In this document: positions 16,794-58,168 of the stretch, one piece after another | Layout: the number at the start of each line of letters is the position of its first letter | Position numbering within the stretch: position 1 is the stretch's first letter | Source: Syntrophaceae bacterium | GTDB lineage: Bacteria; Desulfobacterota; Syntrophia; Syntrophales; Smithellaceae | Direction of reading: 5' to 3' | Assembly (NCBI GenBank): GCA_003142535.1 | Contig: PLMQ01000068.1 | Span: forward strand, 95,000 to 158,999 | Length of the DNA stretch: 64,000 nucleotides | The notes under the pieces: generated by a model | Told to the model about the DNA's origin: nothing | Seen by the model: only the letters and a program-made list of their open reading frames with translations | The model's database searches: none | Translations under genes and position numbers: made by a program

Positions 16794-17034
16794 GGTATGA
16801 ATCCCAAAACGCGCTTTGGGATTCATACCCTCCGCTGCGCGGGATAATTCGACCAGCAAACTTCAGCGTACTTTGTTTCTGAAGTTTGGGTCTCATTACA
16901 ACTTATCAATTCCGACTTGTGACCTTTAGGTTATACGTTTCACTTTCGGAATTGGAGTTTCACGACCACCGCTTACGCGGGATTGTTCAACATACCAATT
17001 TCCCTACACTTCGTTATGGAAATTGGAGTTTCAC
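16794..17034 (-). repeat. Modular multi-hairpin repeat (family A), two tandem units, minus orientation
   Basis: The reverse complement reads GTGAAAC-TCCAATTTCC..GGAAATTGG-TAT-GTTGAACAATCCCGC..GCGG, then a full unit with hp1, GTTGTAATGAGAC-hp2, GTCGAATTATC and the GGGTATGAATCCCAAAGC...TTGGGATTCATACC hairpin. Confidence 0.85.
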
Positions 17035-19141: not shown

Positions 19142-19144
19142 TTC

Positions 19145-20037: not shown

Positions 20038-20042
20038 ATTTT

Positions 20043-20966: not shown

Positions 20967-20985
20967 AATTTAATTGGATTTATTC

Positions 20986-37404: not shown

Positions 37405-37444
37405 GAAAAGCGGTGCGATGATCGCGTCGTGTGATGGAGCATGT

Positions 37445-37885
37445 ATGGCGGAAAATTTGGCAAAAGAAAGTTGGGAACCGAAAATTGTTGCGATCGTCTG
37501 CAATTGGTGCACTTACGCCGGAGCGGATCTGGCGGGCATCAGTAGAATTCAGTATCCGCCCAATGTGAGAATTATTCGTGTTCCCTGCACCGGCAGGATT
37601 AATCCTTTTTACATCGTGAAAGCGCTGCAAGGCGGAGCCGACGGAGTTCTGGTTTCCGGTTGTCATCCCGGCGAGTGCCATTACATAACAGGGAATTTAG
37701 TCGCCCGCCGCAAGTTTGCCACATTAAAACGTTTTCTGAATTACATCGGCCTCGAAGGCGACAGAACAATGTTTACCTGGGTTTCCGCCTCCGAAGGCGA
37801 CCGCTTTGCGCAAGTCATCAGAGGTGTGACCGCCAAGGTTAAAGCTCTGGGGCCGGCAAAAAAAATGCTCAAGAAAATTGGTTAA
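37445..37885 (+). CDS. mvhD: MvhD/FlxD-like iron-sulfur protein (methyl-viologen-reducing hydrogenase delta-subunit family)
   Basis: I place the start at ATG 37445 with a GGAG RBS. The stretch IVAIVCNWCTYAGADLAG...RVPCTGRINP...GADGVLVSGCHPGECHY is characteristic of the family. Confidence 0.85.
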   Translation: MAENLAKESWEPKIVAIVCNWCTYAGADLAGISRIQYPPNVRIIRVPCTGRINPFYIVKALQGGADGVLVSGCHPGECHYITGNLVARRKFATLKRFLNYIGLEGDRTMFTWVSASEGDRFAQVIRGVTAKVKALGPAKKMLKKIG

Positions 37886-37918
37886 TTGGGAAAATAGATT
37901 ATAGACGGGGAATCAATA

Positions 37919-38926
37919 GTGGAAAACATCGATACGAAATTACGAGAAGTTGCTAAAAGGCTGCTTTTGGAAAAGAAGGTTGACGTCATTATCGGCTATG
38001 AAAAAGGAACGCTGCCCATGACGGCAACACCTTGCTTTGTATCCACAGAGGCGGAAGCCGACAAGTTGGTATTTAATGACCTCTGCACGCAGAATTTAGC
38101 CAAATTTGTGCATGACCTGATAACTAATCATAAGAATTCGCAAAAGCGCGTCAAACCGGAAGACCGCAAAAAGAAGATTATCGGCGTTGTCGCCCGCGGT
38201 TGCACAACCCGCTCTCTCATTATTCATTTACAGGAGAGGCAGTATGGCCGCGATGAAGTCTATATCATCGGCGTGCCCTGTGAGGGGTATGTGGATAGAA
38301 AAAATCTGGCGAAGAGTTTGCAGCAGGCCGAAATACTGGATGGAACTATTGAAGGCGGACAATTGAAAATAAAAACAGCAGCGGGCGATAAGACAGTTGC
38401 TTTTAAGGACGTGATTGCTCCCAATTGCGTAGTCTGCCGTTTTAATAATCCGATTATCTCCGATATTATGATTGGCTCTCCGGCTCCGGCCATGAACCCT
38501 GATAATGAATACAGCAAAATTAACGAATTTGAGAAAAAATCTATTGAAGAGCGCTGGGCGTATTTTACCAAAGAAATGGAAAAGTGCATCCGCTGTAACG
38601 CCTGCCGTCAGGCTTGCCCTTCCTGCTACTGCCCGACTTGCTTTGTGGAGCAGAGTCAACCACAATGGGTAGGCATCGGCGAGGATAAGACCGATACGCA
38701 GGTATTTCAATGCATGCGCCTGTACCACATGGTTGGTCGCTGCGTGGATTGTGGGTCGTGCATTTCCGTTTGCCCGATGGGTGTTGACCTGCGCAATTAT
38801 TTGAAAAAGATAGATAAAGATTGTGTTGAATTATTCGGCAGCCGCGCCGGTTCTTCGATGGAAGACATGCCGCCGCTGGGCAAATACAGTGAACAGGATA
38901 AAGAAGATTTTATCTTCAACCCATAA
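37919..38926 (+). CDS. Fe-S oxidoreductase subunit (FlxC-like), paralog of 51588..52451
   Basis: 335 aa with a GTG start. Cys motifs: CIRCNACRQACPSCYCPTCF and CVDCGSCISVCP. The assignment to FlxC rests on context only. Confidence 0.55.
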   Translation: MENIDTKLREVAKRLLLEKKVDVIIGYEKGTLPMTATPCFVSTEAEADKLVFNDLCTQNLAKFVHDLITNHKNSQKRVKPEDRKKKIIGVVARGCTTRSLIIHLQERQYGRDEVYIIGVPCEGYVDRKNLAKSLQQAEILDGTIEGGQLKIKTAAGDKTVAFKDVIAPNCVVCRFNNPIISDIMIGSPAPAMNPDNEYSKINEFEKKSIEERWAYFTKEMEKCIRCNACRQACPSCYCPTCFVEQSQPQWVGIGEDKTDTQVFQCMRLYHMVGRCVDCGSCISVCPMGVDLRNYLKKIDKDCVELFGSRAGSSMEDMPPLGKYSEQDKEDFIFNP

Positions 38927-38952
38927 TTAGTTTGAGTAAAGAAAAGGTGAAT

Positions 38953-39480
38953 ATGGAAACTTTTTTGGAAGAAGTAAATAAGAAAATAGACGGCGTGCCG
39001 ATTCAGCGCTGTTATCACTGCCGCAAGTGCACCGCGGGTTGCCCTGTTGCTTCTCACATGGAATACAACCCCAATAAGGTTGTCAAGATGATTCAAAACG
39101 GCAAGCGCGAGGAAGTGCTCAAAAGCTCAACAATCTGGCTTTGTCTTTCCTGTGAGACCTGCATTACCCGCTGCCCCAATCAGGTGGATATTGCCCGGAT
39201 GATGGATGTACTGCGGCAGATGGCAATCGAATCTGGAGCCGGTGCTCGCGAGAAGAATGTTTTGAAGTTCCATAAAGCATTCCTTGCCGGAATTAAGCGT
39301 GGCGGGCGTATCAATGAACCAATGATGATGGCTGAGTATAAACTCACGTCGGGAGATCTTTTCTCGGACGTTCTTATGGCGCCGGGTATGTTCCTGAAAG
39401 GAAAGCTGTCGCTTCTGTCTCCGCGGACCAAGGATATGAAATCGCTTAAAAGTATTTTTGAGAAAACAAAAAGTATATAA
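38953..39480 (+). CDS. hdrC: Heterodisulfide reductase subunit C-like
   Basis: I prefer ATG 38953 (AAGGTG RBS); the ORF is open from TTG 38932. Two motifs are present: CYHCRKCTAGCP and CLSCETCITRCP. Confidence 0.8.
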   Translation: METFLEEVNKKIDGVPIQRCYHCRKCTAGCPVASHMEYNPNKVVKMIQNGKREEVLKSSTIWLCLSCETCITRCPNQVDIARMMDVLRQMAIESGAGAREKNVLKFHKAFLAGIKRGGRINEPMMMAEYKLTSGDLFSDVLMAPGMFLKGKLSLLSPRTKDMKSLKSIFEKTKSI

Positions 39481-39555
39481 TGGTAAAATTGTTTCGTGTC
39501 GAACCATAGCTGGTTTGATATTGAGAAGTAACAAGCATAAAAGGAGGCTACTCTC

Positions 39556-40404
39556 TTGAAAGTTTCATATTATCCGGGCTGCTCACTACACGCGACGGGA
39601 AAAGAATATGATCAATCCATGAAAGCGGTCAGCCGCGCGCTGGGTATTGAATTAAAAGAAGTTGAAGACTGGTCCTGTTGCGGAGCATCATCGGCGCACA
39701 GCACCAATTTTGATCTGTCTATTGCTTTATCTGCCCGTAATCTGATTGCCGCGGAGAAGAACGCCATGGATGTCATGGTTCCCTGTGCTGCATGTTTTAA
39801 TCGTTTCAAAATGGCCGAACATCAGTTGAAGGCCAATAAGGAACTGAAATCAAAAATTGAAGGTGTTGTGGGTGCCAAATATCAGGGCGGCATCGCGATC
39901 CGCAATCCCATTGATATCATCTATAATGAGATCGGTGTGGATGCGCTGGCGGCAAAAGTTGCTAAACAGCTTGCCGGATTGAAACCAGTCTCTTATTACG
40001 GCTGTTTATTGCTCCGTCCGCCGGAGGTTTGCGAATTTGAAAATTACGAAAATCCGTACATGCTCGACAAGATATTAGGCGTGCTGGGTGCTGATGTTCG
40101 CAACTGGTCTTATAAAACTGATTGCTGCGGTGGATCTCTGGCCATCAGTAAAACGAAAATTGTTGTGGGCATGGTGGATAAGTTGATGAAGGCGGCGAAG
40201 GAAGCAGGCGCCAACTGTGTAGTTACAGCCTGTCCGCTTTGTATGGCCAATTTGGATATGCGTCCCAGCAAAAAATACAAATTGCCGGTTTTTTATTTTA
40301 CAGAATTGATTTCTCTGGCACTTGGTGTGGAAGGGGCGAAGGACACTTTCAAATCGCATATCTTTGATCCACAGCCACTGCTGAGAGAGTTAAAGCTTAT
40401 TTAA
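39556..40404 (+). CDS. hdrB: Heterodisulfide reductase subunit B-like (two CCG domains)
   Basis: 282 aa with a TTG start and an AAGGAGG RBS. Motifs: YYPGCS, WSCCGAS, VPCAACF, YYGC, TDCCGGSL, TACPLC. Confidence 0.85.
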   Translation: MKVSYYPGCSLHATGKEYDQSMKAVSRALGIELKEVEDWSCCGASSAHSTNFDLSIALSARNLIAAEKNAMDVMVPCAACFNRFKMAEHQLKANKELKSKIEGVVGAKYQGGIAIRNPIDIIYNEIGVDALAAKVAKQLAGLKPVSYYGCLLLRPPEVCEFENYENPYMLDKILGVLGADVRNWSYKTDCCGGSLAISKTKIVVGMVDKLMKAAKEAGANCVVTACPLCMANLDMRPSKKYKLPVFYFTELISLALGVEGAKDTFKSHIFDPQPLLRELKLI

Positions 40405-40440
40405 TTTTTTACATAACGAAATTCTTTATTAGGAAAAAAT

Positions 40441-41463
40441 ATGGAAAAACGGTTGATCAAGAAAGATGCGCTGGTGGGTATTGCCAAAAAGATGGCGGAG
40501 GAATTGACGGTTTGGGCTCCGGTGAAAAAAGAAGATAACGTGCTTTTCACGCCGCTCACCAAGGATGCGGAGCCTTTTTTCGCATATCTGAATTCCAAAA
40601 ACGCGCCCAAGCAGGTATTCTTTCCGCATACGGAAACGCTCATGAAATACACCCGCACACCAAAGGGAATGGTTTTTTCGGCGGAAGAAAATAAGGCGGG
40701 AAAAACGGTTCTTTTCGGCGTCCGTCCCTGTGACGCGCACAGCTTTGTTCTGCTGGATATGCTTTTTGATCAGGAAAAGTATAAGGATCAATACTACATC
40801 ACCAAAAGAAACAATACCACAGTCATTACTCTGGCCTGTGCCGAGCCTCCTTATGCTACCTGTTTTTGTACATCGGTTGATGGCGAGCCCGTTTCGGCAG
40901 ATGGAGCGGATATAGTTCTGACAGATATCGGTAGTGAATATCTGGCGGAATTTATTACACCCAAAGGTGAAAAACTGGCCAAATATTTTGGCGAGACTAA
41001 AGCCGATGCCGTGGCCGAAACAAAGAAAAAGGAAATTGCCGAAAAAGCAAAGAAAGCAATCAAATCCAAAATACCGGCACATGAAGTAAAACCGATTCTG
41101 GATAATAACTTTGAGCATCCCTTCTGGGCGACAATCCACGGCAAATGCCTCGCCTGCGGCACTTGCACCTATATGTGCCCGACCTGCCATTGCTTTGATA
41201 TCAGCGATGAAGCTAAAGCAAGCGACGGCGTGCGGATTCGTTCTTGGGATTCCTGCATGTTTCCGCTTTTCACCAAGGAAACGTCGGGCCACAATCCGCG
41301 GATATCGCAAAAAGAAAGATGGCGCCAGCGCGTCATGCACAAATTCAAGTATTATGTGGATAATTTCAATGCCATCGCCTGCGTAGGTTGCGGCCGCTGT
41401 GTCATGTCCTGTCCCGTTAATATAGATATTAGAAAAATTATTGAAGATATTTCAAAATTATAA
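40441..41463 (+). CDS. 4Fe-4S subunit, FlxB / sulfhydrogenase-beta / AsrA-like
   Basis: 340 aa. Motifs: CLACGTCTYMCPTCHCFD and CVGCGRCVMSCP. Paralog of 52456..53505. Confidence 0.65.
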   Translation: MEKRLIKKDALVGIAKKMAEELTVWAPVKKEDNVLFTPLTKDAEPFFAYLNSKNAPKQVFFPHTETLMKYTRTPKGMVFSAEENKAGKTVLFGVRPCDAHSFVLLDMLFDQEKYKDQYYITKRNNTTVITLACAEPPYATCFCTSVDGEPVSADGADIVLTDIGSEYLAEFITPKGEKLAKYFGETKADAVAETKKKEIAEKAKKAIKSKIPAHEVKPILDNNFEHPFWATIHGKCLACGTCTYMCPTCHCFDISDEAKASDGVRIRSWDSCMFPLFTKETSGHNPRISQKERWRQRVMHKFKYYVDNFNAIACVGCGRCVMSCPVNIDIRKIIEDISKL

Positions 41464-42317
41464 TGATGGAGTCAGTAATGCAAAATCCTTATATACCGTA
41501 TCCCGTTGAGGTCACCAAAATAATCACGGAAGTAGACACGAAAGATATCAAGACTTTCCGTTTAAAATTCGTAAATCCGGAAGACGAAGAAAAATTCAAG
41601 TATATTCCCGGCCAGTTCGGCGAGCTTTCCATTTACGGCAAGGGTGAATCTCCAATCGGTATAGCGTCATCACCCACTCAGAGGGGCTATATTGAATTTA
41701 CAGTACAGAAAGCCGGCGTTGTGACATCCGCTTTGCACGAAATGGAAGAAGGAACCCTGATGGGTGTCCGCGGCCCGATGGGCAATTCCTGGCCGATTAA
41801 GTTTCTGGAAGGAAAGAATATTGTCATTGTCGGCGGCGGTTTTGCTTTTACGACTTTGCGTTCTTTGATCAACTACATGATTCATGAGAATAACCGCAAG
41901 CGCTTCGGCAAAATAACCGTAATTTACGGTGCCAGAAATCCCGGTTTGCTGATTTATAAAGACGAACTTATCGAATGGCAAAAAAGAGACGACCTGAACA
42001 TAAATGTCACCGTGGATAAAGGTGATGCAACGTGGAAGGGTAGGGAAGGTTTTGTTCCGACAGTTTGCAAGGAAGTTGCACCGAGTGCGGAAAATGCAGT
42101 TACAGTTATCTGTGGCCCGCCGATCATGATTCGCTTTACACTGCCGGTCTTTTTTGATTTGGGCTTCAAGAAAGAAAACATCATCACTTCGCTGGAAATG
42201 CGCATGAAGTGCGGCATCGGCAAATGCGGCCGCTGCAACGTCGGCAGTAAGTATGTCTGCAAAGATGGACCGGTGTTTTCGCTGGCGGAGCTTGATAAAC
42301 TAACCAAAGAATACTAA
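41463..42317 (+). CDS. FAD/NAD(P)-binding oxidoreductase with C-terminal 2Fe-2S site, FlxA / sulfhydrogenase-gamma / AsrB-like
   Basis: 284 aa with a TAATG overlap onto the upstream gene. Motifs: PGQFGELS, VGGGFAFTTLRSL, CGIGKCGRCNVG. Paralog of 53688..54551. Confidence 0.75.
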   Translation: MMESVMQNPYIPYPVEVTKIITEVDTKDIKTFRLKFVNPEDEEKFKYIPGQFGELSIYGKGESPIGIASSPTQRGYIEFTVQKAGVVTSALHEMEEGTLMGVRGPMGNSWPIKFLEGKNIVIVGGGFAFTTLRSLINYMIHENNRKRFGKITVIYGARNPGLLIYKDELIEWQKRDDLNINVTVDKGDATWKGREGFVPTVCKEVAPSAENAVTVICGPPIMIRFTLPVFFDLGFKKENIITSLEMRMKCGIGKCGRCNVGSKYVCKDGPVFSLAELDKLTKEY

Positions 42318-45277: not shown

Positions 45278-45461
45278 GTGAAACTCCAATTTCGCGAACG
45301 AAGCGAAGCGAAATTGGCAAGTTGTAATGAGACCCAAACTTCAGAAACAAAGTGCGCTGAAGTTTGCAGGTCGAATTATCCTAGGCAAAGCCTAGGGAAC
45401 AATCCCACGTAGCGGAGGGTATAATACCCCGCAGCTTGCTTTGGGGTTCATACCCGTGGTT
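45278..45461 (+). repeat. Modular multi-hairpin repeat (family A), full-length copy
   Basis: Layout: GTGAAAC-TCCAATTTCGC..GCGAAATTGG-CAA-GTTGTAATGAGAC-CCAAACTTCAG..CTGAAGTTTG-CAG-GTCGAATTATC-CTAGGCaaaGCCTAGG-GAACAATCCC..GCGG-AG-GGTATAATACCCC..CTTTGGGGTTCATACCC-GTGGTT. Confidence 0.85.
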
Positions 45462-45553: not shown

Positions 45554-46120
45554 CTAAAAATGTGTTTCTATAAAATTACGAAAAGGAACAAAAGACGGGC
45601 AACGCTTCGTTACCTTTTCGATCGAAAGTTTCTTGGCAATTTTTTCGTTGTGTTTAGTATTCATGTAAATTCTTTCACCTTTAGAGCAGATGCGTATCAA
45701 TTCGCCAAGATGTTCTTTGGGCGAGTTAATTGTTTCGGGAAATCCTTTAATATTGGGTTTCTGATTCAGATTCATTGCGCTTTTTATAGCATCTGGATCA
45801 CTTAGAAGCCAAGCTTCAAATTCTTGTACTGGTATACAGATTAAATAATTTGCGATAGCACACGGATCTAAAGCTGCCTGGATCTTTATATGTAACTCAT
45901 TGAGAATATGTGAATCGCGATCGTGAATAACAACCAAAGCAGAGCATCCCTTCTGCTTTAGTTGATTTGCCCACGCATTGCATTTACGCTTGATTTTCCC
46001 ACATCCTTTACCAACAAATTTTTTTATTCCTATTTGTTCATTATTTGCAATCCTATGGATTAATACCTTGGCGGATTCCACATCAGAATCATCCTCGGCG
46101 ATTATTCCTATCTTACTCAT
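45554..46120 (-). CDS. DUF4276-like (TOPRIM-like) protein, partner of the upstream ABC ATPase
   Basis: I place the start at ATG 46120 (MSKIGIIAEDDSDVES...) with a GGGAGG RBS. It overlaps the ATPase stop by 8 nt (ATGAGTAA). Acidic motifs occur in TOPRIM order: IIAEDDSD, VVIHDRD, PVQEFEAWLL. The family name is from memory. Confidence 0.7.
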   Translation of the reverse strand: MSKIGIIAEDDSDVESAKVLIHRIANNEQIGIKKFVGKGCGKIKRKCNAWANQLKQKGCSALVVIHDRDSHILNELHIKIQAALDPCAIANYLICIPVQEFEAWLLSDPDAIKSAMNLNQKPNIKGFPETINSPKEHLGELIRICSKGERIYMNTKHNEKIAKKLSIEKVTKRCPSFVPFRNFIETHF

Positions 46121-47357
46121 TATCAAGGCCTCCCTCTCTCCAGTATTCGCCAAGATTTCCTGATTCCTCAAGATATCCGCGCAGCACTTTGTAATCATTC
46201 TTACTCATAGATTTGCTCAATTGTGTTGCTATTGTGCCTTTATTGGGCTGACGTTTAACTAAAACAAGATTTTCTGGATCCAAATGATCAAGAACGAAAT
46301 CGGAGTGCGTACTAATTACAATCTGTTTCTGTTTTGATTGAGACTTGATTAAAGAAATAATGCTACTTAACAAGCCATGATGAATACATACTTCTGGTTC
46401 TTCAATCAGCAATAATTTACTTTCGTCTGTTAAAATATAAAAAAGCAATGCTAATGTTTTAAAAGTACCTTCAGAAAGTTGATTTGGTGACAACTGGCTA
46501 CCATCAACAGAAAAGCTTGGAACAATAAGCTGTCTATTTCTTTCAATCTTCGTTATTTTACCGCCTGATTGAACATTATAGGAACTTGACGGCATGTTAA
46601 CTTCATTAAATGAAATGTCATCAATAAGTCCTATCCCCTCCTTATTAACAGTGCTTAGATAACGTTTATACTGTTTATCTTTTGCTTTATAAGACTTATA
46701 CAAATCTAAGATAAATTGGTCATGGCCTGCAAAAGAACGAGGCCTTCTCAACGGTCTATTTTCTTCTAGTTCTATAGATACTGGACTTCTTGATGGATCT
46801 GAAAATTGGCTTGCGCTGTAATAACTTATTCCATTAAAGAAGAGGGCTATGTCAGTTAGAATTTGATGCTCATTATCTGACAACAATGGTCTCGATCTTC
46901 GTTTAAGATAAAACCATCTTTCTCGCATGATTCTTCTATAATCTGAGTCAGATTGATCTCCCACATATTTAAATTGTTCATGATATGTGATAAATTCTAT
47001 TGGAATATTTATCCATTTTGATTTTTCAGGAAATTTCCATTTAACATTTGAGAATTGGACATCATCATTATTTCGTTCATCAGTTTCAAAATAAATTATC
47101 CCATCCATAAATATCGATTTTGTTGAATCCACAAGCTCTGCTCTAATTTTACAATGATTATATGAAGCTTCATCCATGTGGTGCGGGAGAGAAGAAGATC
47201 TAGCGCGCCAAATTTTTCGCAGAAGTAGAATAGCGTTTAATATATTGCTTTTACCAGCGCCATTTATACCTATGAGACCAGTCAATTCATTTTGTAATGG
47301 AAAGACAGTTTTAATGCATGAACGATAAGTTTGAATTTTTAGAGATTTAAGTTTCAT
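46113..47357 (-). CDS. ABC-type (AAA_21/AAA_15, OLD/RecF-like) ATPase
   Basis: 414 aa with an AAGGAG RBS. Walker A is GINGAGKSN. An ~250-aa insert is followed by an ABC-signature-like LSEGTFKTLAL, a Walker B LLLIEEPE and an H-loop VISTHS. Confidence 0.85.
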   Translation of the reverse strand: MKLKSLKIQTYRSCIKTVFPLQNELTGLIGINGAGKSNILNAILLLRKIWRARSSSLPHHMDEASYNHCKIRAELVDSTKSIFMDGIIYFETDERNNDDVQFSNVKWKFPEKSKWINIPIEFITYHEQFKYVGDQSDSDYRRIMRERWFYLKRRSRPLLSDNEHQILTDIALFFNGISYYSASQFSDPSRSPVSIELEENRPLRRPRSFAGHDQFILDLYKSYKAKDKQYKRYLSTVNKEGIGLIDDISFNEVNMPSSSYNVQSGGKITKIERNRQLIVPSFSVDGSQLSPNQLSEGTFKTLALLFYILTDESKLLLIEEPEVCIHHGLLSSIISLIKSQSKQKQIVISTHSDFVLDHLDPENLVLVKRQPNKGTIATQLSKSMSKNDYKVLRGYLEESGNLGEYWREGGLDNE

Positions 47358-47787
47358 TAATATTCTCCTTGCTAAGTATACTGTCGATTTATCGGGATAA
47401 TTTTATTTCCAATTATCACTAAATATTACATCACTAATGTTCATATTTTATTTCTTTTCAGTGGCTCACACCTAATACGATGGACTAAGTTGTCAAAAAT
47501 AATACAACTTCTTAGAAACATTGCAAGAAAAACTTAACATTACGATATTTTAGCTTTTTTTGCTTTTTTTAACGAAATCCGGCGACTTGCCCGGAATATC
47601 CGGCATTCGCCGGATGAATTACACTTATTAATACCGGCATCTGCTTAAGCACGCCGGTGATTTTTGAGGTAATTCAATTTGAATTTGCGATTTTAGCTTT
47701 CATGTGTTAGTAAACTGCGCGTTAATCAGATGGCATAAATCCATTAAAAAATCAGTTTATGTTCATCAGGAAGTACAGGAGAAACAA

Positions 47788-48963
47788 ATGTCTATTGCAA
47801 CACCATTTCTGGAAATGTCCCAGGCGATTGTTGATGCCGGCGGCGAGGCGCTGAAAAAATGTTATCAGTGCGGCACCTGCACGGGCACCTGTCCCTGGAC
47901 ACCAATCACCCATTTCAATATCCGCATGCTGGTCAGGATGAGCCAGCTTGGCCTCGAAGGCATCGAAGATAATATGTGGGGCTGTTCCACTTGTAAATTT
48001 TGTGTGGACAGATGCCCCCGGGGCGTGGAAATCATTGATCTGGTGCGGGCTATAAGAAGTGTATATAGCATGGGCGGTATGTTGCCGCAGAGCCTGCGGG
48101 CGTTTGTCGGTAGCATGTCGGCACGGGGCAATCCATGGTCGGGCGATCAGGAAAAAAGAAACGATTGGGCAAAAGGAAAATATCCGCTTTATACAGCCGA
48201 TAAAGAATATCTCAACTGGACATGCTGCACTTCTGCGTTCGATCCCCGCAATGTTCATGTAGCCAAAGCAACGGCGGCGCTGCTGGATGCTGCGGGTTTA
48301 AGCTGGGGGCTGCCGAGTACGGCGGTCAACTGCTGTGGCGAAAGTCTTAGTAAAGTTGGCGATAGTGAGCTCTTTGAAAGGCTCAAGACCAATAATCTGC
48401 AATTCTTTGATAATAACGAAGTTAAAAAGATGATCGTCGCTTCGCCGCACTGTCTGGATACTTTTACCAAGCAATACGGGCGCGACTATAAAGTTATCCA
48501 TTTAAGCGAGCTCTTGGCCGATTTGATTAAAGCCGGAAAGCTGACGCCGAAGAAAGATTTAGGCGGAATAAAAGTTACCTATCATGATCCCTGCTATCTG
48601 GGACGGCACAACCAGGTTTACGATGCACCGCGCGAAGTCCTGCAAGCCATACCGGGAATTGATTTTATCGAGATGGGCAGAAACAGAGAGCAGAGCATGT
48701 GTTGCGGCGGTGGCGGTGGCGGACTATGGATGGAAAAGATGAAAGGCGAACGCCTGAGCGATCTGCGTATTGAAGAAGCGCTCGCGACCGGTGCGACAGT
48801 GTTGGCAACGGCTTGCCCGTATTGCATAACGATGTTTGAAGACAGCGTTCGCACATTGAATGCCGAAGATAAAATTAAGATTAAGGATGTGGCGGAGCTG
48901 TTGCTGGAAAGCTTGGATATTAATGTGGCCGAGCCGGTTGCTGATGTTTGTACCACCAGTTAA
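47788..48963 (+). CDS. HdrD-like Fe-S/CCG-domain protein (fused HdrC+HdrB-type)
   Basis: I place the start at ATG 47788 (AGGAG RBS); the ORF is open from 47704. Motifs: CYQCGTCTGTCP, CSTCKFCVDRCP, then two CCG domains (VNCCGES, SMCCGGGGG, TACPYC). Confidence 0.8.
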   Translation: MSIATPFLEMSQAIVDAGGEALKKCYQCGTCTGTCPWTPITHFNIRMLVRMSQLGLEGIEDNMWGCSTCKFCVDRCPRGVEIIDLVRAIRSVYSMGGMLPQSLRAFVGSMSARGNPWSGDQEKRNDWAKGKYPLYTADKEYLNWTCCTSAFDPRNVHVAKATAALLDAAGLSWGLPSTAVNCCGESLSKVGDSELFERLKTNNLQFFDNNEVKKMIVASPHCLDTFTKQYGRDYKVIHLSELLADLIKAGKLTPKKDLGGIKVTYHDPCYLGRHNQVYDAPREVLQAIPGIDFIEMGRNREQSMCCGGGGGGLWMEKMKGERLSDLRIEEALATGATVLATACPYCITMFEDSVRTLNAEDKIKIKDVAELLLESLDINVAEPVADVCTTS

Positions 48964-48978
48964 AATGAAAAAATATTC

Positions 48979-49100
48979 TCTCCCCCTTTTTTAAAGGGGG
49001 ATCAAGGGGGATTTTGTGGTGGTTGTGATTTCAGAGGCTTTATTTGACGCTTTGCCAAAATAAAGCCTCCCCTAACCCCTCTTTATAAAAGAGGGGAATC
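48979..49100. repeat. G/C-tract hairpin repeat cluster (family D)
   Basis: Three hairpins are visible: TCCCCCTTTtttAAAGGGGGA, AGGCTTTATTT..AAATAAAGCCT and CCCCTCTTTataaAAGAGGGG. Confidence 0.6.
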
Positions 49101-49197
49101 ATGAGGCGGGGACGTTACTAATGGTTAGGGCTAGAGCATTGACTCTTTAGATAGATTTTGATAAAAAAGTAAAAGCAATTTTTAGGGAGAAAGTTTA

Positions 49198-51147
49198 ATG
49201 AGCAGAATTGGTGTTTTTGTTTGCCACTGCGGTTTGAATATAGCAAAGACAGTGCGGGTGAGCGAACTTGTGGAATTTGCCCGGACGCTGCCCGATGTTG
49301 TTGTTGCCGAAGAATATAAGTTCATGTGTTCCACACCGGGTCAGGAACTGATTCAGAATGACATCAAAAAATACAAGCTCGACAGAGTAATTGTTGCCGC
49401 TTGTTCACCACTGATGCACGAGAAAACGTTCCGCAAAGTTATTGCAGCCACAGGTCTGAATCAATATCTCCTCACGATTGTCAACGTAAGGGAGCAAACA
49501 TCCTGGGTAACCAGTGATATCGAGGTAGGCACAGCCAAGGGCAAGGCACTGATTAACGGTGCGGTTTACCGCGCACGTTTGTTAAGTCCTTTGGTATCAC
49601 GTGTTATTGATGTAAATCCCGACATAGTGGTCGTGGGCGGTGGCATCGCAGGAATTCAGGCCGCGCTGGAGTTGGCCGATACCGGGAAACAAGTTTATCT
49701 GGTGGAAAAAAGCCCCACTATCGGCGGCCATATGGCGCAGTTTGACAAAACATTTCCCACGCTGGATTGCTCTGCCTGTATTCTGACGCCGAAGATGGAC
49801 GCTGTTTTGCAGCATAAAAATATCAAGATGATGACTTACTGCGAAGTTACCGAGGTAAAAGGCTATGTCGGCAATTTCGATATTATTGTTAAACAAAAAG
49901 CACGCTACGTCGATCATGATAAGTGCAATGCGTGTCTTGCCTGCACGGAGAAATGCCCCGGCAAGGGCGTATCCGAATGGGATGAAGGCCTGGCCAAGAA
50001 GAAAGCCATTTCCATTCCTTTCCCGCAGGCTGTGCCGCAAAAACCGGTAATCGACCGCGACTCCTGCACGTTTTTCCTGAAAGGCAAATGCCGCCTGTGT
50101 GAAAAGGTCTGCGAGCAAAAAGCAATTGATTTTGAACAGCAGGATACTTTTGTCAATATCAAAGCCGGCGCGATAATTGTCGCCACCGGTTACGATTTAA
50201 TGGATACCAAACCACTTGTGCAATACGGCTACGGCAAACTTCCCGGCGTTTATTCCGCATTGGAAGTAGAGCGCCTTTTCAATTCAGCCGGTCCTACGGG
50301 CGGCAAAGTGACGCTGCGCGACGGTTCGGAGCCCAAGTCTATCGCTATCCTGCACTGCATCGGCAGCCGTGATAAAAATAATCATGAACATTGCAGCAGA
50401 GTCTGCTGTATGTATTCGCTGAAGTTTGCGCATCTCTTCAAAGAGAAGACATCCGCCGATGTTTATCAGTTCTACATCGATATGCGGGCGGCAGGCAAAG
50501 GTTATGAGGAATTTTACAACCGGATAATTGAAGAAGATGTGAAGTTCATCCGCGGTAAGGGTGCGCGCATTACCGAAAGCAAGGAAGAGCCGGGCAGGCT
50601 GGTTGTCGAGGCGGAAGATACAATTACCACCAAATTTATCAATCTGCCGGTGGATATGGTTGTCCTTTCTCCGGCTATTGTTCCGCGCGCGGATGCCAAA
50701 GATGTGCAGCGTATGTTTAATCTCAGCTCCGACAAGCACGGCTTCTTTATGGAGCGGCATCCGAAACTGGCGCCGCTTTCCACAATGACAGAAGGCGTTT
50801 TCATTGCCGGTGTCTGCCAGGGGCCGAAAGATATTCCCGACACAGTTGCTCAGGCGCTGGGCGCGGCGGCAGAAGTGCTAACAATTGTTTCCAAGGATAA
50901 AATGGAACTGGAAGCTACAACAGCGATTGTTAATCCGGCTGTGTGCTGCGGCTGCCAGAATTGTGTTCGCGTTTGTCCCTATGGAGCGCCTTCCTTTAAC
51001 GAGCAAAAAAATGTTTGCGAAATCAACGAAGCTTTATGCAAAGGCTGCGGCCAGTGTGCGGCGGCGTGCCCGACTTCGGCGATTATTGCCCGTCATTTTA
51101 CTAACGAGCAAGTATTAGCCGAAATTGAAGGATTGATGGAATACTAG
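49198..51147 (+). CDS. hdrA: Heterodisulfide reductase subunit A (canonical length)
   Basis: 649 aa. Motifs: GVFVCHCGLNI, VVGGGIAGIQAALELA, DKTFPTLDCSACIL, LHCIGSRD..CSRVCCMY, and a C-terminal 2x[4Fe-4S] (CCGCQNCVRVCP, CKGCGQCAAACP). Confidence 0.95.
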   Translation: MSRIGVFVCHCGLNIAKTVRVSELVEFARTLPDVVVAEEYKFMCSTPGQELIQNDIKKYKLDRVIVAACSPLMHEKTFRKVIAATGLNQYLLTIVNVREQTSWVTSDIEVGTAKGKALINGAVYRARLLSPLVSRVIDVNPDIVVVGGGIAGIQAALELADTGKQVYLVEKSPTIGGHMAQFDKTFPTLDCSACILTPKMDAVLQHKNIKMMTYCEVTEVKGYVGNFDIIVKQKARYVDHDKCNACLACTEKCPGKGVSEWDEGLAKKKAISIPFPQAVPQKPVIDRDSCTFFLKGKCRLCEKVCEQKAIDFEQQDTFVNIKAGAIIVATGYDLMDTKPLVQYGYGKLPGVYSALEVERLFNSAGPTGGKVTLRDGSEPKSIAILHCIGSRDKNNHEHCSRVCCMYSLKFAHLFKEKTSADVYQFYIDMRAAGKGYEEFYNRIIEEDVKFIRGKGARITESKEEPGRLVVEAEDTITTKFINLPVDMVVLSPAIVPRADAKDVQRMFNLSSDKHGFFMERHPKLAPLSTMTEGVFIAGVCQGPKDIPDTVAQALGAAAEVLTIVSKDKMELEATTAIVNPAVCCGCQNCVRVCPYGAPSFNEQKNVCEINEALCKGCGQCAAACPTSAIIARHFTNEQVLAEIEGLMEY

Positions 51148-51157
51148 GAGAAGATTT

Positions 51158-51580
51158 ATGGAATTTGAACCAAAGATACTGGGTATAGCCTGCAACTGGT
51201 GTACCTACACAGGGGCGGATCTTGCCGGAACGACGCGCCTGAAATATCCGCAGAACCTGCGCGTTGTCCGGGTCATGTGCTCCAGCCGGATCAATCCTTC
51301 GTTTATATTCCGGGCGTTTCAACTGGGCGCGGATGGAGTCCTCGTCGGTGGCTGCCATCCCGGCGATTGCCATTATAATACAGGGAATCTTTATGCACGC
51401 CGCAGGCTCGCGGTAACAAAAAAAATACTCGACTTTGCCGGGTTGGAGCCTTCCCGTTTCCGTGTGGAATGGATTTCCGCCTCCGAAGGCAATAAGTTTG
51501 CCGAAGTGGTGAAAGAATTTACCGAGCATGTGCAGATCCTGGGACCGCAGACCAAGTTCAAGATCGCGGGGGTGTCTTAA
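51158..51580 (+). CDS. mvhD: MvhD/FlxD-like iron-sulfur protein
   Basis: 140 aa. The stretch ILGIACNWCTYTGADLAG...RVMCSSRINP...GADGVLVGGCHPGDCHY is characteristic. Paralog of 37445..37885. Confidence 0.9.
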   Translation: MEFEPKILGIACNWCTYTGADLAGTTRLKYPQNLRVVRVMCSSRINPSFIFRAFQLGADGVLVGGCHPGDCHYNTGNLYARRRLAVTKKILDFAGLEPSRFRVEWISASEGNKFAEVVKEFTEHVQILGPQTKFKIAGVS

Positions 51581-51587
51581 ACAAGAT

Positions 51588-52451
51588 ATGACTAACTTTA
51601 AACAGATCGAAGAAAATTTAAAAAAGGAAGCGAAAAAGCTGCTGGAAGCTGGCAGTGTGGCGGTTGTGCTGGCTTACACCAAAGGTGCCGATGAAAAACA
51701 TCCCCAGCCCTTTGCTGCCAAAAAAGCAGACGATGTTGCCAATATTATATTTAACGAATACTGCAATCATAATCTGGCCCGCTATATTGTGAGATACGCG
51801 CCCGGAACAAAAATCGCGGTGGCCGTCAAAGCTGCCGACAGCCGGGCAGTGGTGGTGCTGATTCAGGAAGAAAAAATCAAAAGAGAAAATTTAATACTGC
51901 TGGGTATTCCGGTAAGCGGGATGAAAAACCAGAAAACCGGTGAAATTATCGACGAGAAGACAACCGGCGGATTAACCAATCCCGTTGTCTATGACGTACT
52001 GCTTGGTGAAGAAATCCATACCGGCAAACCTGTTTCACCTTACACGGTTTTGGAGCAGTACGAAAAAATGGATAAGGACGCACGGTTTGCCTTTTGGAAA
52101 GCTCAGTTCGATAAATGCATCCGCTGCTATGCCTGCCGCAAGGCCTGCCCGATGTGCTATTGCGATCCGTGCTTTATTGATCAGACTAAACCGCGGTGGG
52201 CGGATAAATCTCCCCAGTCGCACGGCAATCTCATGTATCATCTGACGCGCTTCCAGCATCTGGCCGGGCGCTGCATCGATTGCGGAGAGTGCACCCGCGC
52301 CTGCCCGGTAGATATTCCGCTATACCTGTTCCACAAGAAGGTGGCGAAAGATTGCGAGGAAATGTTCAAGCAGGCTGCCGGCATGAAGATTGAGGATAAA
52401 CTGGTAATGGTGGATTTCCGCGTGGAAGATTCCGACAAAATTTTGGAGTAA
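51588..52451 (+). CDS. Fe-S oxidoreductase subunit (FlxC-like), paralog of 37919..38926
   Basis: I place the start at ATG 51588 (MTNFKQIEE); the longer ORF would overlap mvhD. Motifs: CIRCYACRKACPMCYCDPCF and CIDCGECTRACP. Confidence 0.55.
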   Translation: MTNFKQIEENLKKEAKKLLEAGSVAVVLAYTKGADEKHPQPFAAKKADDVANIIFNEYCNHNLARYIVRYAPGTKIAVAVKAADSRAVVVLIQEEKIKRENLILLGIPVSGMKNQKTGEIIDEKTTGGLTNPVVYDVLLGEEIHTGKPVSPYTVLEQYEKMDKDARFAFWKAQFDKCIRCYACRKACPMCYCDPCFIDQTKPRWADKSPQSHGNLMYHLTRFQHLAGRCIDCGECTRACPVDIPLYLFHKKVAKDCEEMFKQAAGMKIEDKLVMVDFRVEDSDKILE

Positions 52452-52455
52452 TGTA

Positions 52456-53505
52456 ATGGCCGCATCCGTATTGAAAAAAGTAGTAATCGAAAAAATAAAT
52501 GAAGTCGCTGCCGTGCTCATGCAAAAGGGGACGCTCATTGCTCCTGTCAAAGAAGAAGCAGGCGCGAATTTCCGCGAAATAAAAGATCCCAAAGATATTT
52601 ATCTCGATTATTACAACAGCATCCTCAGCCCCAAAATGGTTTTCTTTCCCCAAATGGAAGATTTCGTTAAATATCAACTGGCCAAGCCGAAAGCAGATGC
52701 CAAAATTGTCGAGATGAATTTAAAGCCCGCCTTTTTATTCGGCGTGCGCCCCTGCGACGTAAAAAGCTTTGAGATTCTGGACAAACATTTTTATGCTTCG
52801 GGCATTATCGATACCTACTGGAAAGCCAGACGTGATAACACAACAATCATTGGTTATGCTTTTGATTTGGATAAGCCGGTCGATTCCGCAGATTTCTACA
52901 ACACGCTGGGCATCGGTGCCGCTGATCCCGAAGGCAGCGATATCTTCATAGTGAAAAAAGACAAAGAACTGCTGCTCAAAGGAATCACGAAAAAGGGCGA
53001 GGCGCTGCTGGGCGAGCTTTCTATGCTGGAAAAAGCTGACGCCAAAGATGAAAAATATTTCACCGATTATGTGAAGAAGGGCAAAGAAAAGAAAACGCGC
53101 TTCATGAAAGTGGATGATAAGGCTGTTGCGAAAAAATATGAGGATATCTTTGAAAATAATGAATACTGGACAAAGATGTCCGATGCCTGCCTGAGCTGTG
53201 GCGTTTGTACGTTCGTCTGTCCGACCTGCTATTGCTTCGATATTTGCGATGAAACAATCTTTGGTAAGGGAACAAGGCGCCGCATCTGGGATGCCTGTAT
53301 GTTTACGGACTTTACGCTGGAGACGAGCGGCCATAATCCGCGCACCAAGGTATCGCAGAGATTAAGACAGAAGGTCTGCCATAAATATTCATTTTCGGTC
53401 AGAAAGTACGATGTCATTTCCTGTGTCGGTTGCGGACGCTGCACGCGTTCCTGCCCGGTGAATATTGATATATACTCGATGGTGGAAGAAGCGACAAAAT
53501 TATAA
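52456..53505 (+). CDS. 4Fe-4S subunit, FlxB / AsrA-like, paralog of 40441..41463
   Basis: 349 aa. Motifs: CLSCGVCTFVCPTCYCFD and CVGCGRCTRSCP. Confidence 0.65.
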   Translation: MAASVLKKVVIEKINEVAAVLMQKGTLIAPVKEEAGANFREIKDPKDIYLDYYNSILSPKMVFFPQMEDFVKYQLAKPKADAKIVEMNLKPAFLFGVRPCDVKSFEILDKHFYASGIIDTYWKARRDNTTIIGYAFDLDKPVDSADFYNTLGIGAADPEGSDIFIVKKDKELLLKGITKKGEALLGELSMLEKADAKDEKYFTDYVKKGKEKKTRFMKVDDKAVAKKYEDIFENNEYWTKMSDACLSCGVCTFVCPTCYCFDICDETIFGKGTRRRIWDACMFTDFTLETSGHNPRTKVSQRLRQKVCHKYSFSVRKYDVISCVGCGRCTRSCPVNIDIYSMVEEATKL

Positions 53506-53512
53506 TTATGTG

Positions 53513-53628
53513 GTCATTCCGGCGCAGGCCGGCTTTGTGCCCTTTAGGGTAAATCCAGGCGTCGTCCCGACGAAAGTCGGTAACCAATTTTATTATATTA
53601 CTGGATGCCGGATCAAGTCCGGCATGAC
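53513..53628. repeat. Palindromic repeat family C, inserted between flxB-like and flxA-like genes
   Basis: The sequence is GTCATTCCGGCGCAGGCCGG..TGTGCCCTTTAGGGTAAATCCAG...CTGGATGCCGGAtcaagTCCGGCATGAC. Confidence 0.75.
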
Positions 53629-53687
53629 AAATTAGGTTTTTTAAAGTTATAACTGTAAAAAAGCATATATGCAAAAAATAAGGAAAA

Positions 53688-54551
53688 ATGATGATGAGCA
53701 ATAACCCTTACATTCCAATGCCGGTGACCATCACCAAGATAATCAATGAAGTCGATACCAACGATATCAAGACATTCCGGCTGACTTTTCAGAATAAAGA
53801 AGATGAACAAAAATTTAAATACCTGCCCGGACAGTTTGCTGAACTTTCTATTTTCGGCAAGGGCGAATCACCCATTGGTATTGCTTCATCGCCTACGGAA
53901 CCGGGCTATGTGGAATTCACCGTACAAAAAGCGGGAGTAATTGTACCGGGGCTGGTCACCGCAGCGCTGCATGATCTGGAAGAAGGCGCCGAAATCGGTA
54001 TGCGCGGCCCGTTGGGTAAATCATGGCCCATTGAATTTCTGGAAAAGAAGAATATCGTGGTTGTGGGCGGCGGCTTTGCCTTTACAACTTTGCGTTCGCT
54101 CATCAATTACATGCTGCATAAAGACAATCGTAAACGTTTCGGAGAAATTACTGTTGTTTATGGTGCGCGGAATCCCGGCCTGCTTCTTTATAAAAATGAA
54201 CTGGCTGCCTGGGAAAAAAGAGACGATATTAAAACCAATATTACCGTGGATAAGGGGAATGAAAGCTGGAAGGGCAGGGAAGGCTTTGTGCCCAATGTCT
54301 GTAAAGAAGTTGCACCCAGCCCGAAAAATACAGTTGCGGTCATCTGCGGTCCGCCTATCATGATCAAGTTTACACTGCCGGTATTTTACGATTTAAAATT
54401 TGCCAAAGAAAATATTCTAACATCGCTCGAGATGCGGATGAAATGCGGCATCGGCAAATGCGGCCGCTGCAATGTCGGCTTCAAATACGTTTGCAGCGAC
54501 GGCCCGGTTTTTTCCATGGCCGAACTCGAAGAACTGCCACGCGATTTTTAG
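53688..54551 (+). CDS. FAD/NAD(P)-binding oxidoreductase, FlxA / AsrB-like, paralog of 41463..42317
   Basis: 287 aa. Motifs: PGQFAELS, VGGGFAFTTLRSL, CGIGKCGRCNVG. Confidence 0.75.
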   Translation: MMMSNNPYIPMPVTITKIINEVDTNDIKTFRLTFQNKEDEQKFKYLPGQFAELSIFGKGESPIGIASSPTEPGYVEFTVQKAGVIVPGLVTAALHDLEEGAEIGMRGPLGKSWPIEFLEKKNIVVVGGGFAFTTLRSLINYMLHKDNRKRFGEITVVYGARNPGLLLYKNELAAWEKRDDIKTNITVDKGNESWKGREGFVPNVCKEVAPSPKNTVAVICGPPIMIKFTLPVFYDLKFAKENILTSLEMRMKCGIGKCGRCNVGFKYVCSDGPVFSMAELEELPRDF

Positions 54552-55250: not shown

Positions 55251-55389
55251 ATTAAAAAGTTCCTGTTTGTCGATTAAAAGAGCAATACATTACATCTCCG
55301 TGGTTGTCAATTTTGCATATCTGTCATATACTATTTGATGATTTAAACTATATTAAGCAGAAACGAATCTTTCTTAATTGGAATATAAA

Positions 55390-55980
55390 ATGAGTAAAAT
55401 ATCAGACTTGATTTTTTTCCGCGATAAGCATGTCTGCCCATGGTGGTTATGCTTTACGTTTGATAACATTTTCCGTAATCTGATCCATAATCCGTATAAA
55501 ATCCTGAGTCCGTACATAAAAGTAGGAGATACGATTTTGGATATTGGGCCGGGAATGGGTTATTTTACAATTCCGATGGCGAAGATGACCGGTGCGGAAG
55601 GCCGGGTGATTGCAGCGGATATTCAGGAGAGGATGCTCCTTGCTCTTAAAAGGCGAGCGGAAAACGCTGGTGTAGATAAACGAGTGATTGTGCATTTGAG
55701 TTCTCCCGATTCATTGGCTATAAAAGAGAAAGTAGATTTTATTCTGGCATTTTGGATGGTGCATGAAGTACCGGACAAAAAGCGGTTTTTGAGCGAACTT
55801 TTTTCGGTATTGAAAGATAACGGGGCTTTTCTACTGGCTGAACCGGCTATTCATGTTACAAAAGCTAACTTTGCAGAAACAGTAAATTTAGCCGTGCAAG
55901 CGGGATTCATTATTTGCGCCCAACCTGAAATATTTTTAAGCCGGACTGTTTTATTAGTGAAACAACAATTCGGAAAGTGA
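55390..55980 (+). CDS. Class I SAM-dependent methyltransferase
   Basis: Motif I is ILDIGPGMGYFT. ATG 55390 is chosen; the alternative is TTG 55378. The last 8 codons and the stop are supplied by repeat family A. Confidence 0.75.
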   Translation: MSKISDLIFFRDKHVCPWWLCFTFDNIFRNLIHNPYKILSPYIKVGDTILDIGPGMGYFTIPMAKMTGAEGRVIAADIQERMLLALKRRAENAGVDKRVIVHLSSPDSLAIKEKVDFILAFWMVHEVPDKKRFLSELFSVLKDNGAFLLAEPAIHVTKANFAETVNLAVQAGFIICAQPEIFLSRTVLLVKQQFGK

Positions 55981-56066
55981 AGCGTATCCGAATTGGTAAG
56001 TTGAACTATCCCGCACAGCGGAGGGTATGAACAGCAAAGCTTGATTTGTTGTTCATGCCCGTGGTT
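55957..56066 (+). repeat. Modular multi-hairpin repeat (family A), short form lacking hp2/hp3
   Basis: Layout: GTGAAAC-AACAATTCGGA..TCCGAATTGG-TAA-GTTGAACTATCCCGCacaGCGG-AG-GGTATGAACAGCAAAGC..TGTTGTTCATGCCC-GTGGTT. Confidence 0.8.
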
Positions 56067-57973: not shown

Positions 57974-58168
57974 GTGAAACTCCAATTTCCATAACGAAGT
58001 GTGTAACCTAAAGGTCACAAGTGGAAATTGGTAAGTTGTAATGAGACCCAAACTTCAGCCCTGAAGTTTGCAGGTCGAATTATCCCTAAAGCGAAGCTAG
58101 GGGAAACAATCCCGCACAGCGAAGGGTATGATAATCAGCAGCTTACTTTGGGGTTCATACCCGTGATT
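57974..58168 (+). repeat. Modular multi-hairpin repeat (family A), full-length reference copy
   Basis: All five hairpin modules and all conserved linkers are present (see findings). Confidence 0.85.

Follow-up and report, generated by a model that had tools for sequence, protein, structure and literature searches.

Nested hairpin repeats of Smithellaceae that probably spread as small non-autonomous mobile elements

How do bacterial repeats that are too small to encode anything move from one place to another? Outside the REP-RAYT case (repetitive extragenic palindromes and their associated tyrosine transposases), this is an open question. The small dispersed repeats (SDRs) of the Nostocaceae are the described elements that come closest in behavior to what we report here: SDR4-6 are reportedly very small, hairpin-forming and nested within other repeats, and they are said to show insertion polymorphism at orthologous sites, with no target duplication and no known transposase. 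SDRs have been counted among the repeats of unknown origin (PMC3116915), and among the HIP1-rich cyanobacteria examined, no SDR-like repeat was found outside the Nostocaceae (PMC5861425). In this paper, we describe a family of equally tiny, nested hairpin elements from a different phylum. They came to light at six places in one stretch of 64,000 nucleotides (positions 95,000 to 158,999 of contig PLMQ01000068.1, assembly GCA_003142535.1; hereafter, the window) from a Smithellaceae bacterium, a relative of Smithella in the order Syntrophales.

The first-pass annotation of this DNA had proposed an undescribed interspersed element, modular and mosaic and built of several hairpins, at six loci of the window, and that proposal is supported. 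A blastn-short self-search recovers all six, which we call A to F (16794-17036 on the minus strand, 19143-19299, 20984-21209, 45278-45461, 55957-56066 and 57974-58168), plus only one further match, a 14-nt chance one at 298-311. A direct reading of all six loci bears out the layout of hairpins (numbered hp1 to hp5) down to its particulars: two tandem elements in minus orientation at 16794-17034, no hp2 or hp3 in the copy at 55957, an hp4 block that precedes hp2 in the copy at 20986, a nested AACCTAAAGGTyAC hairpin in some hp1 loops, and distal hp1 stems (TTCC/GGAA, CCGA/TCGG, TCGC/GCGA and CGGA/TCCG) that are all complementary. What has to be redrawn is the architecture. The hairpins do not form a linear string joined by linkers; they are nested, hairpins within hairpins. 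Both hp1 and hp2 are real, not as distinct types but as paralogues of one type of unit, and hp3, which is also real, is not a part in its own right but the terminal hairpin of an inserted hp2-type sub-element. No gene, tRNA, CRISPR array or terminator explains the six loci. At gathering score, the Rfam matches in the window are RNase P RNA (20547-20920) and tRNA-Met (18888-18960) alone, and the elements have no match either at that score or at E<=10; ARAGORN finds nothing in the window beyond the tRNA.

The building block of all copies is a hairpin of 50-55 nt, and its parts follow one another in the order R1-T-G-A-R5-A-C-N8, a 10-bp stem, a 12-nt loop, the return stem, a 2-nt bulge, R43-G-T-Y46-G-A-A-Y50 and WATCC. 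That is, an outer helix, RTGARAC/GTYGAAY, with tandem G.A/A.G at columns 3-4 and 47-48, encloses a stem whose sequence is free and whose arms are complementary, and the stem is capped by a loop (consensus AAGCGAAGCGYA) that itself holds a triloop mini-hairpin of 2 bp, GC-NNA-GC. At least ten different stems occur on the same flanks, among them TCCAATTCCG, CCAAACTTCAG, CCAAGCTTCAG, TCAAATTTCA, CCAGATATTGT, TCGAATTACAG and TCCTATTCCGC. A strict pattern for the unit matches 137 times in the roughly 1.5 Mb of related DNA that we fetched (loci with L numbers below) and not once in shuffled DNA. Of these 137 units, 96 have an inner length of exactly 35 nt, and most of the longer ones hold a nested insert; an inner length so fixed around a stem so free suggests that a protein reads geometry plus flanks. 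With a covariance model of the unit, we find 11 units in the window, all of them within the six loci (E from 1e-19 to 6e-6), and the next-best match there has E=0.34.

The arms of the unit covary. We aligned 89 distinct 50-nt units against the structure just described and compared them with 500 shuffles: 93.7% of the cells are paired, against 79.5 +/- 0.5% in shuffles, none of which reaches 93.7%; changes on both sides of a pair occupy 203 cells, against 50; and 12 of the 16 pairs show compensatory change. As a control, sliding the partner by 1-3 columns lets pairing fall to 8-49%. Covariation extends into the outer helix, where pair 1-50 is GC in 66 units and AU in 22, pair 5-46 AU in 66 and GC in 22, and pair 8-43 UA in 77 and CG in 7; these outer pairs vary independently of one another, because recombinant forms such as GTGAGAC...GTCGAAC and ATGAAAC...GTTGAAT exist. 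The bases of the tandem G.A were required by the search pattern, and they are kept also in divergent units of the AATGACAC type. The loop mini-hairpin is 97% paired (GC in 63, AU in 18); among the triloops of the 89 units, GAA accounts for 48, with A nearly invariable in third place, and hp4 has the same C-NNA-G design. The hp5 stem covaries more weakly and noisily than the unit (60% Watson-Crick, against 44% with shuffled partners). Compensatory stem changes had been read at first pass as a sign of selection on structure. The covariation stands; selection is one reading of it among several, for amplification of different master copies, or copying from arm to arm, would also produce it.

Elements are assembled from one to three such units, strictly head-to-tail, followed by tail hairpins. 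In the minimal form, one unit is followed by the terminal hairpin ATCCCGC-NNN-GCGGGAT-T. The canonical form, of about 111 nt, reads (with hairpins in parentheses) GTGAAAC-(TCCAATTCCG..loop..CGGAATTGG)-TAAGTTGAACAATCC-(CGC-NNN-GCG)-GAGG-(GTATAAT..TCATAC)-CCGTGRTT, and sizes cluster at 110-113, 128-138, 152-157 and 173-216 nt. Much of this variety is nesting. The full form of hp4, ATCCCGC-NNN-GCGGGAT, is present in L019, L026, L034 and L080, and the canonical tail reads ATCCCGC-NNN-GCGG(AGGGTAT..ATACCCGT)GATT; by sequence comparison, therefore, hp5 lies within the 3' arm of hp4. The hp5 loop can in turn carry ACCCC..GGGGT, itself able to carry a CCGCAGCTTGCTGCGG hairpin, and from this come 111-nt and 136-nt forms. 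Units fall into an M1 type (AAC...GTTGAAC) and an M2 type (GAC...GTC), and an M2-type unit with its own terminal hairpin, hp3, forms a sub-element that is found at GTTG^TAATGAGAC (n=21) and GGAGGG^TAATGAGAC (n=5).

Smaller still is a mini-module of 18-20 nt, made of a core, TAACCTAAAGGTCAC, and an extension, TATAG or RNG. Its core has 50 matches (at two mismatches or fewer), a few of them unrelated genomic matches, and most lie in loops: those of M1 units, of M2 units, of a second repeat family and of the mini-module itself. The 20-nt form sits exactly between the A and the G of a GCGAA^GC triloop, and the module is carried by the copy in L049 and missing from its orthologue in L009. Tandem copies also occur, a new element standing directly 3' of an older copy's GTGRTY end (locus A, L043, L085).

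Two further observations belong here. At the post-terminator site that locus B occupies in the window, two orthologous loci (L120:7150-7600 and L122:4380-4830) show a related variant of the unit repeated many times in tandem, each repeat being TTCGAC-TCAAATTTCAG..CTGAAATTTG-CTAGTCGAACTTATCC-CGC..GCGGGG-TTAGTTCCACGAATAGGAG; arrays can therefore exceed 400 nt. The second repeat family is represented in the window at about 3740-3862 (minus), between an open reading frame at 2996-3451 (minus) and ileS at 3915-6704 (plus). It is a long imperfect hairpin of about 125 nt with complementary ends and the core ...GGCGGCAAGGAGGAGGCGACGAGGCGTATT..ATACGTTGAGGAAGCCGAC..GCCAACAAAGATAGCGCTTTGATTTAGAATTGGTAT, it has no Rfam match, and 19 copies were seen, in loci such as L013:6500-6900, L062, L095 and L151. 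It can host both M1 units and the 18-20 nt mini-module as nested inserts. The GCCAACAAAGATAGC context beside some units, which we had considered as tmRNA, is this second family; ARAGORN found no tmRNA.

Do these elements insert? Here, the rpoD neighborhood is informative, since a metagenome scan with RpoD gave us 80 orthologous loci (RpoD identity 71-90%). In about 60 of them, the dnaG-rpoD spacer measures 8-30 nt. It measures 276 nt in the window, 242 in L112, 176 in L143 and 99 in L111, and these four are filled, with the element in identical orientation each time and with different internal composition. Comparison of filled with empty sites (L143 with L145, the window with L103) shows that the element went in exactly 3' of a TTTATT(T/C) that pre-exists in the empty site. 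The target is not duplicated, and GTGAAAC... at one end of the element is no inverted repeat of ...GTGATT at the other. The site after tRNA-Met tells the same story: it is empty in about 55 loci (for example, ...ttttttttatcc|taaaaaag in L103), and it has been filled independently by different subfamilies in L116, L120/L122, L146, L151, L158, L172 and the window, always in one orientation and directly after the terminator T-run plus A(T)T. The empty site of locus C was not recovered, the 3' flank of RNase P being unmatched in the closest relatives.

The target is directional. Among 124 left flanks, T stands at -2 in 94%, at -5 in 88% and at -6 in 78%, and the commonest flanks are TTTATT, TTATTC and TTATTT; beyond the right end, the next 12 nt are random. 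The motif often belongs to the T-run that ends an intrinsic terminator or, read on the opposite strand, to an AATAAA lying ahead of a ribosome-binding site; before ATGA-type units, there is always TA. On the left, a hairpin stands at the very terminus, and on the right, another comes to within 6 nt of it. The right end reads GTGATT in 61 copies, GTGGTT in 29 and GTGATC in 12, resembles the target and itself attracts new copies. In one relative (L111, about 2740-2760), the dnaG frame runs into the element and has its stop codon there.

The family extends beyond the window. A scan of genomes with the hp1 pattern, one genome per species, gave more than 95 stretches among the matches listed, all in metagenome-assembled genomes (MAGs) of Smithella, Smithellaceae or Syntrophaceae, from at least 25 assemblies; the source habitats are bogs, fens and lake sediment. 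The covariance model finds 182 units in 713 kb of MAG loci and 32 in 705 kb of the rpoD-centered metagenome loci, where 21 of 80 have them. Density is about 0.1-0.2 units per kb, which extrapolates to several hundred units per genome. Nor is the similarity an assembly artefact, because locus F is 100% identical in two independent metagenome contigs (L001 and L002). Presence and absence differ between close relatives (L143/L145, the window/L103), so there is turnover. Blastn against plasmid and phage collections gave no match to the elements, literature searches by element sequences gave only unrelated primer matches, and a literature search combining Smithella, repetitive elements and hairpin gave nothing. 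The family is abundant in Smithellaceae and apparently undescribed.

On viral-classed DNA, there is a separate observation to record. Three IMG/VR matches to the GTGAAAC pattern are chance and go unscored by the covariance model, and ATGAGAC-type units are real by that model on seven IMG/VR contigs. These contigs (L186-L192, classed viral; for example, L190:2008-2057, 3005-3054 and 7925-7974) carry ATGAGAC/ATGAAAC-type units with long terminal hairpins, and these units often follow CCTCCT (a ribosome-binding site in reverse complement) without a gap. Such a context could mean a different target preference or misclassified host DNA.

What, then, are these repeats? That they are mobile DNA, a non-autonomous repeat family, we hold with great confidence. 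Our overall best explanation goes further, and we would give it a probability of roughly 55%: they are non-autonomous mobile elements specific to Smithellaceae, selfish, and moved in trans. The mover would be an enzyme that recognizes hairpin geometry together with the conserved flanks, most plausibly a transposase of the single-strand-DNA HUH/Y1 type, of the IS200/IS605 or RAYT kind. Insertion at the top level is orientation specific, immediately 3' of a T-rich TTATT(Y), and leaves no target duplication. Larger copies arise by nesting, as extra hairpin modules enter existing ones: M2-type sub-elements at GTTG^AAC or GAGGG^TAT, the 18-20 nt mini-module in loops and hp5 in the 3' arm of hp4. 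New copies inserted 3' of an older GTGRTY end yield the tandem arrays.

We infer from the pattern of insertion that it resembles the "peel and paste" of IS200/IS605-type elements, or of their miniature derivatives, by a Y1 HUH enzyme. Taken alone, a HUH single-strand mechanism is a tentative choice, one that we would not back at even odds. Folding of the consensus is strong both as RNA (-41.9 kcal/mol, z = -3.8) and as DNA (z = -4.2). In single-stranded DNA, GNA triloops of the d(GCGAAGC) type and tandem G.A pairs are unusually stable, and stable RNA hairpins favor GNRA or UNCG loops; the triloops and tandem G.A of our units hint at a DNA form. Orientation, tails and mismatches all fit selfish DNA whose copies decay after insertion.

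Several results weigh against this explanation, and it is fair to put them in one place. There is no sign of the enzyme: tblastn with IS608 TnpA, IS200 TnpA and Escherichia coli RAYT gave only noise at E>0.5 in the 1.5 Mb, no transposase is found among the window proteins, and the open reading frames between neighboring units are housekeeping ones (such as DapF, Dut, LeuA/D, aconitase and RNase HII). The missing Y1/RAYT carries little weight, since a sample of that size should contain a single-copy gene only about 0.5 times on average. Neither did we see an autonomous copy of 1-2 kb, or any pair of left and right ends 0.25-5 kb apart. The left unit is unlike the right-hand hp4 and hp5 in sequence and in size, and no motif common to the nested sites and TTATT is obvious. 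Element orientation divides 60:65 with respect to local GC skew, a noisy proxy, and is even also where skew is high. Main-helix mismatches are G:T in 21 cases and A:C in 21, and this equality favors neither strand, and neither nucleic acid, as the one that folds. Finally, pairs of copies taken from one assembly differ at 4.2 positions in 20 nt, little less than pairs drawn from different assemblies (4.9), and no pair is identical, from which we take the family to be old, with no burst under way. The G-rich strand carries five of the six window elements and 10 of 13 on one 2.09-Mb contig, a lean that we treat as chance.

One could keep mobility and give up any familiar enzyme. In that case, the elements would form a hairpin-into-hairpin insertion system, which places modules as small as 18-20 nt at defined positions of folded hairpins (for example, between the A and the G of a GCGAA^GC triloop) and 50-nt units, with their protein-ruler geometry, beside TTATT, and which belongs to no known transposase class. 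So far we think it rather unlikely.

A different class of explanation makes the units functional structured RNA, a 3'-end stabilizer acting in cis, an attenuator or a processing site (as proposed for REP/BIME), or else a small RNA, kept by selection. The strong RNA fold agrees with this, as do covariation that reaches three pairs of the outer helix, a pairing of 94% despite about 20% divergence of copies in the variable core, the position of many copies immediately downstream of genes or terminators, and two strand-specific features, the tandem G.A and the bulge. Yet the elements show no preference of orientation to flanking genes (22 co-directional, 17 antisense, 20 convergent and 10 divergent), mismatches of the G:U type are not in excess over A:C, the triloops are GNA/NNA rather than the GNRA/UNCG of stable RNA hairpins, Rfam has no match, no T-tail follows the hairpins, and orthologous sites are mostly empty and, where filled, vary in composition. 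As terminators, the elements can be rejected for want of T-tails. As promoters, they fail also: there is no sigma70-like excess, the consensus TTGAAC-19 nt-TATAAT has the wrong spacing, and orientation to genes is random. Orientation independent of genes, the lack of T-tails and of any promoter excess, and equal mismatches argue together against a primary role for a strand-specific RNA, and we give structured RNA only a small chance.

RNA might also serve merely as an intermediate, with hairpin transcripts reverse-transcribed and integrated by a group II intron or another reverse transcriptase, and with template switching at hairpins as the source of chimeras and nesting. Copy-choice would give mosaics whose modules are sharply bounded, and 18-20 nt modules in loops, and the targets are T-rich, but the elements have neither a poly-A nor any other tail, no target duplication is seen, copies lie in both orientations relative to transcription, and no reverse transcriptase occurs near the elements or in the window (the RVT_3 match at 19992-20453 is an RNase H-type domain). 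We regard this route as improbable. Weakest is the proposal that the units are sites for a host DNA-structuring or recombination protein (integron-attC-like, or of the IHF or gyrase type), spread by recombination and duplication: the fixed 35-nt inner length, conserved flanks and free stem do resemble a protein ruler, and the AAC...GTTGAAC of M1 resembles the attC core, GTTRRRY, but M2 units have GAC...GTC (pair 5-46 is G-C in 22 of 89) and do not keep the AAC/GTT triplets that define attC in its R''/R' boxes, the units are dispersed between housekeeping genes with no cassette array beside an integrase, and clean filled and empty sites with a directional target speak for insertion events, so that we reject attC identity and hold the proposal as a whole very improbable.

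The six loci can be read one by one (unit coordinates are those of the covariance model). Locus A (16794..17034, minus) lies between the dnaG stop (16774) and the rpoD start (about 17051), is antisense to both and consists of two tandem elements. A1 (17034-16965) is a minimal element of unit, hp4 and TGGTC, and A2 (16964-16794) comprises an M1 unit with nested mini-module, an M2 unit, hp4, hp5 and AATGATT; the units are at 16985-17034, 16899-16959 and 16847-16896. Locus B (19145-19299, plus) is a degenerate M1 unit with a divergent middle (unit 19145-19194), hp4 and a long hp5, ending in GTGATC; it adjoins the 3' side of a terminator T-run plus ATTC, downstream of tRNA-Met and a conserved stretch of about 190 nt and upstream of a CT398-like gene. 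Locus C (20986-21209, plus) comes after the terminator of RNase P RNA and runs up to the stop (21212) of a convergent PEP-synthase-like gene; it is composed of an M1 unit with mini-module, hp4, a nested M2-type sub-element, a long hp5 and GTGATT, with units at 20988-21050 and 21074-21123.

Locus D (45278-45461, plus) has an M1 unit (45279-45326), an M2 unit (45327-45376), hp3 (CCTAGGCAAAGCCTAGG), hp4, hp5 and GTGGTT, and it stands between two minus-strand genes (by Pfam, the start of DUF1254/DUF1214 and the end of DUF4276), antisense to both. Locus E (55957-56066, plus) is the canonical 110-nt form, one unit (55957-56006) with hp4, hp5 and GTGGTT; its first 24 nt, 55957-55980, are the last eight codons and the stop of a methyltransferase open reading frame (55378-55980). 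Locus F (57974-58168, plus) comes after an alpha/beta-hydrolase gene and its terminator, upstream of an AMP-binding (PaaK-like) gene. Its M1 unit (57974-58038; 57978-58038 by the model) holds a nested mini-module at about 58003-58022, its M2 unit (58041-58080) has a shortened loop, and its tail, by direct reading, is made up of hp3 (58081-58104), hp4 (58108-58125), hp5 (58124-58162) and the right end GTGATT (58163-58168).

The window as a whole carries a dnaG-rpoD operon (with sigma-70 region 1.1), his genes, ileS and two Hdr/Flox-like clusters. These clusters (32920-42317 and 47704-54551) are paralogous, each with a large flavin/FeS oxidoreductase, FlpD/CCG/Fer4 and DHODB-type electron-transfer subunits, and they match a syntrophic energy metabolism. 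The style of the sequence had first suggested a cyanobacterial source, which is rejected on the strength of the dnaG-rpoD operon, the Hdr/Flox-like clusters and the genome matches, all of them in Smithellaceae. Adjoining element D on the minus strand (45554-47357) are an AAA_21/AAA_15 ATPase (46113-47357) and then a DUF4276 protein (45554-46198), which look like a defense-type two-gene pair. Between tRNA-Met and its terminator (19111-19136), a stretch of about 170 nt (18964-19136) is conserved in about 70 orthologous loci; it contains a hairpin, gccgtga...tcacggcac, has no Rfam match and may be an unannotated small RNA co-transcribed with the tRNA.

Why should such small things matter? In uncultured syntrophs, these elements reshape gene ends and operon spacers, as at dnaG-rpoD, at the methyltransferase C-terminus and at the dnaG stop of L111. 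They will confuse gene callers and screens for non-coding RNA in Syntrophales MAGs, and they are possible strain-typing markers for Smithella populations. With hundreds of copies per genome (by extrapolation), clean sites, a directional target and a defined unit, both the rules of recognition and the enzyme become testable. If a hairpin-into-hairpin system were the truth, the Nostocaceae, so far the only reported source of unexplained "very small mobile repeats", would be joined by another and independent example, with enough copies and variants to derive its rules.

How does the family compare with what is already known? It is like the SDRs in tiny size and in nesting, a comparison of behavior only, and the hosts are of different phyla, Thermodesulfobacteriota here and cyanobacteria there. 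To our knowledge, SDRs have not been described with a 50-nt unit that combines tandem G.A with a triloop mini-hairpin.

To REP, BIME and REPIN elements, the likeness is broader: all are extragenic imperfect palindromes in hundreds of copies, with mosaics and a short 5' motif (GTAG in REP, RTGA here). REPINs, however, are inverted doublets of an imperfect palindrome of 20-40 nt behind a conserved GT[AG]G, whereas our units are all head-to-tail, with RTGARAC as 5' motif and a free stem sequence, and nesting of hairpin in hairpin is not a REP feature; with neither inverted doublets nor GTAG, the elements are not REPINs. No RAYT flanked by repeats was found in the fetched DNA. The link to REP/BIME and RAYT/IS200 drawn at first pass was offered as conjecture and stays one: an IS200/IS605-like style of insertion favors it, and the head-to-tail units, the even split by the GC-skew proxy and the lack of any Y1/RAYT gene in the fetched DNA do not.

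That style is shared in some detail with IS200/IS605 and the PATEs (palindrome-associated transposable elements): no terminal inverted repeats, no target duplication, hairpins at or near both ends, and insertion 3' of a short motif (a tetra- or pentanucleotide in IS200/IS605) that is retained at the left flank, with a right end, GTGATT, that resembles the target TTATT. The two hairpins of IS608 are alike, in keeping with the related subterminal hairpins that TnpA binds, whereas ours differ, and the left one stands at the very end; IS200/IS605 elements are usually strongly biased to one replication strand, and by the noisy proxy of local GC skew ours divide 60:65; and neither TnpA nor TnpB was found for the elements in the fetched DNA or the window.

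The BOX elements of Streptococcus pneumoniae offer a parallel in plan, their middle modules, of varying number, being framed by one module at the 5' side and one at the 3' side, and BOX, Correia/NEMIS, ERIC and RPE-type repeats share an intergenic habit and the occasional supply of a stop codon (here, locus E and L111). Their sequences are unrelated, and they have no fixed 35-nt hairpin unit or nested mini-hairpins. Our elements have neither the terminal inverted repeats nor the target duplications that mark Correia and ERIC, which also sets aside a classical MITE (miniature inverted-repeat transposable element). In behavior, then, the small dispersed repeats of Nostocaceae would be the closest relatives by analogy, and in insertion style, IS200/IS605 and the PATEs. 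The family belongs among the small non-autonomous repeats of bacteria, and within that company, its structural unit is unusually well defined.

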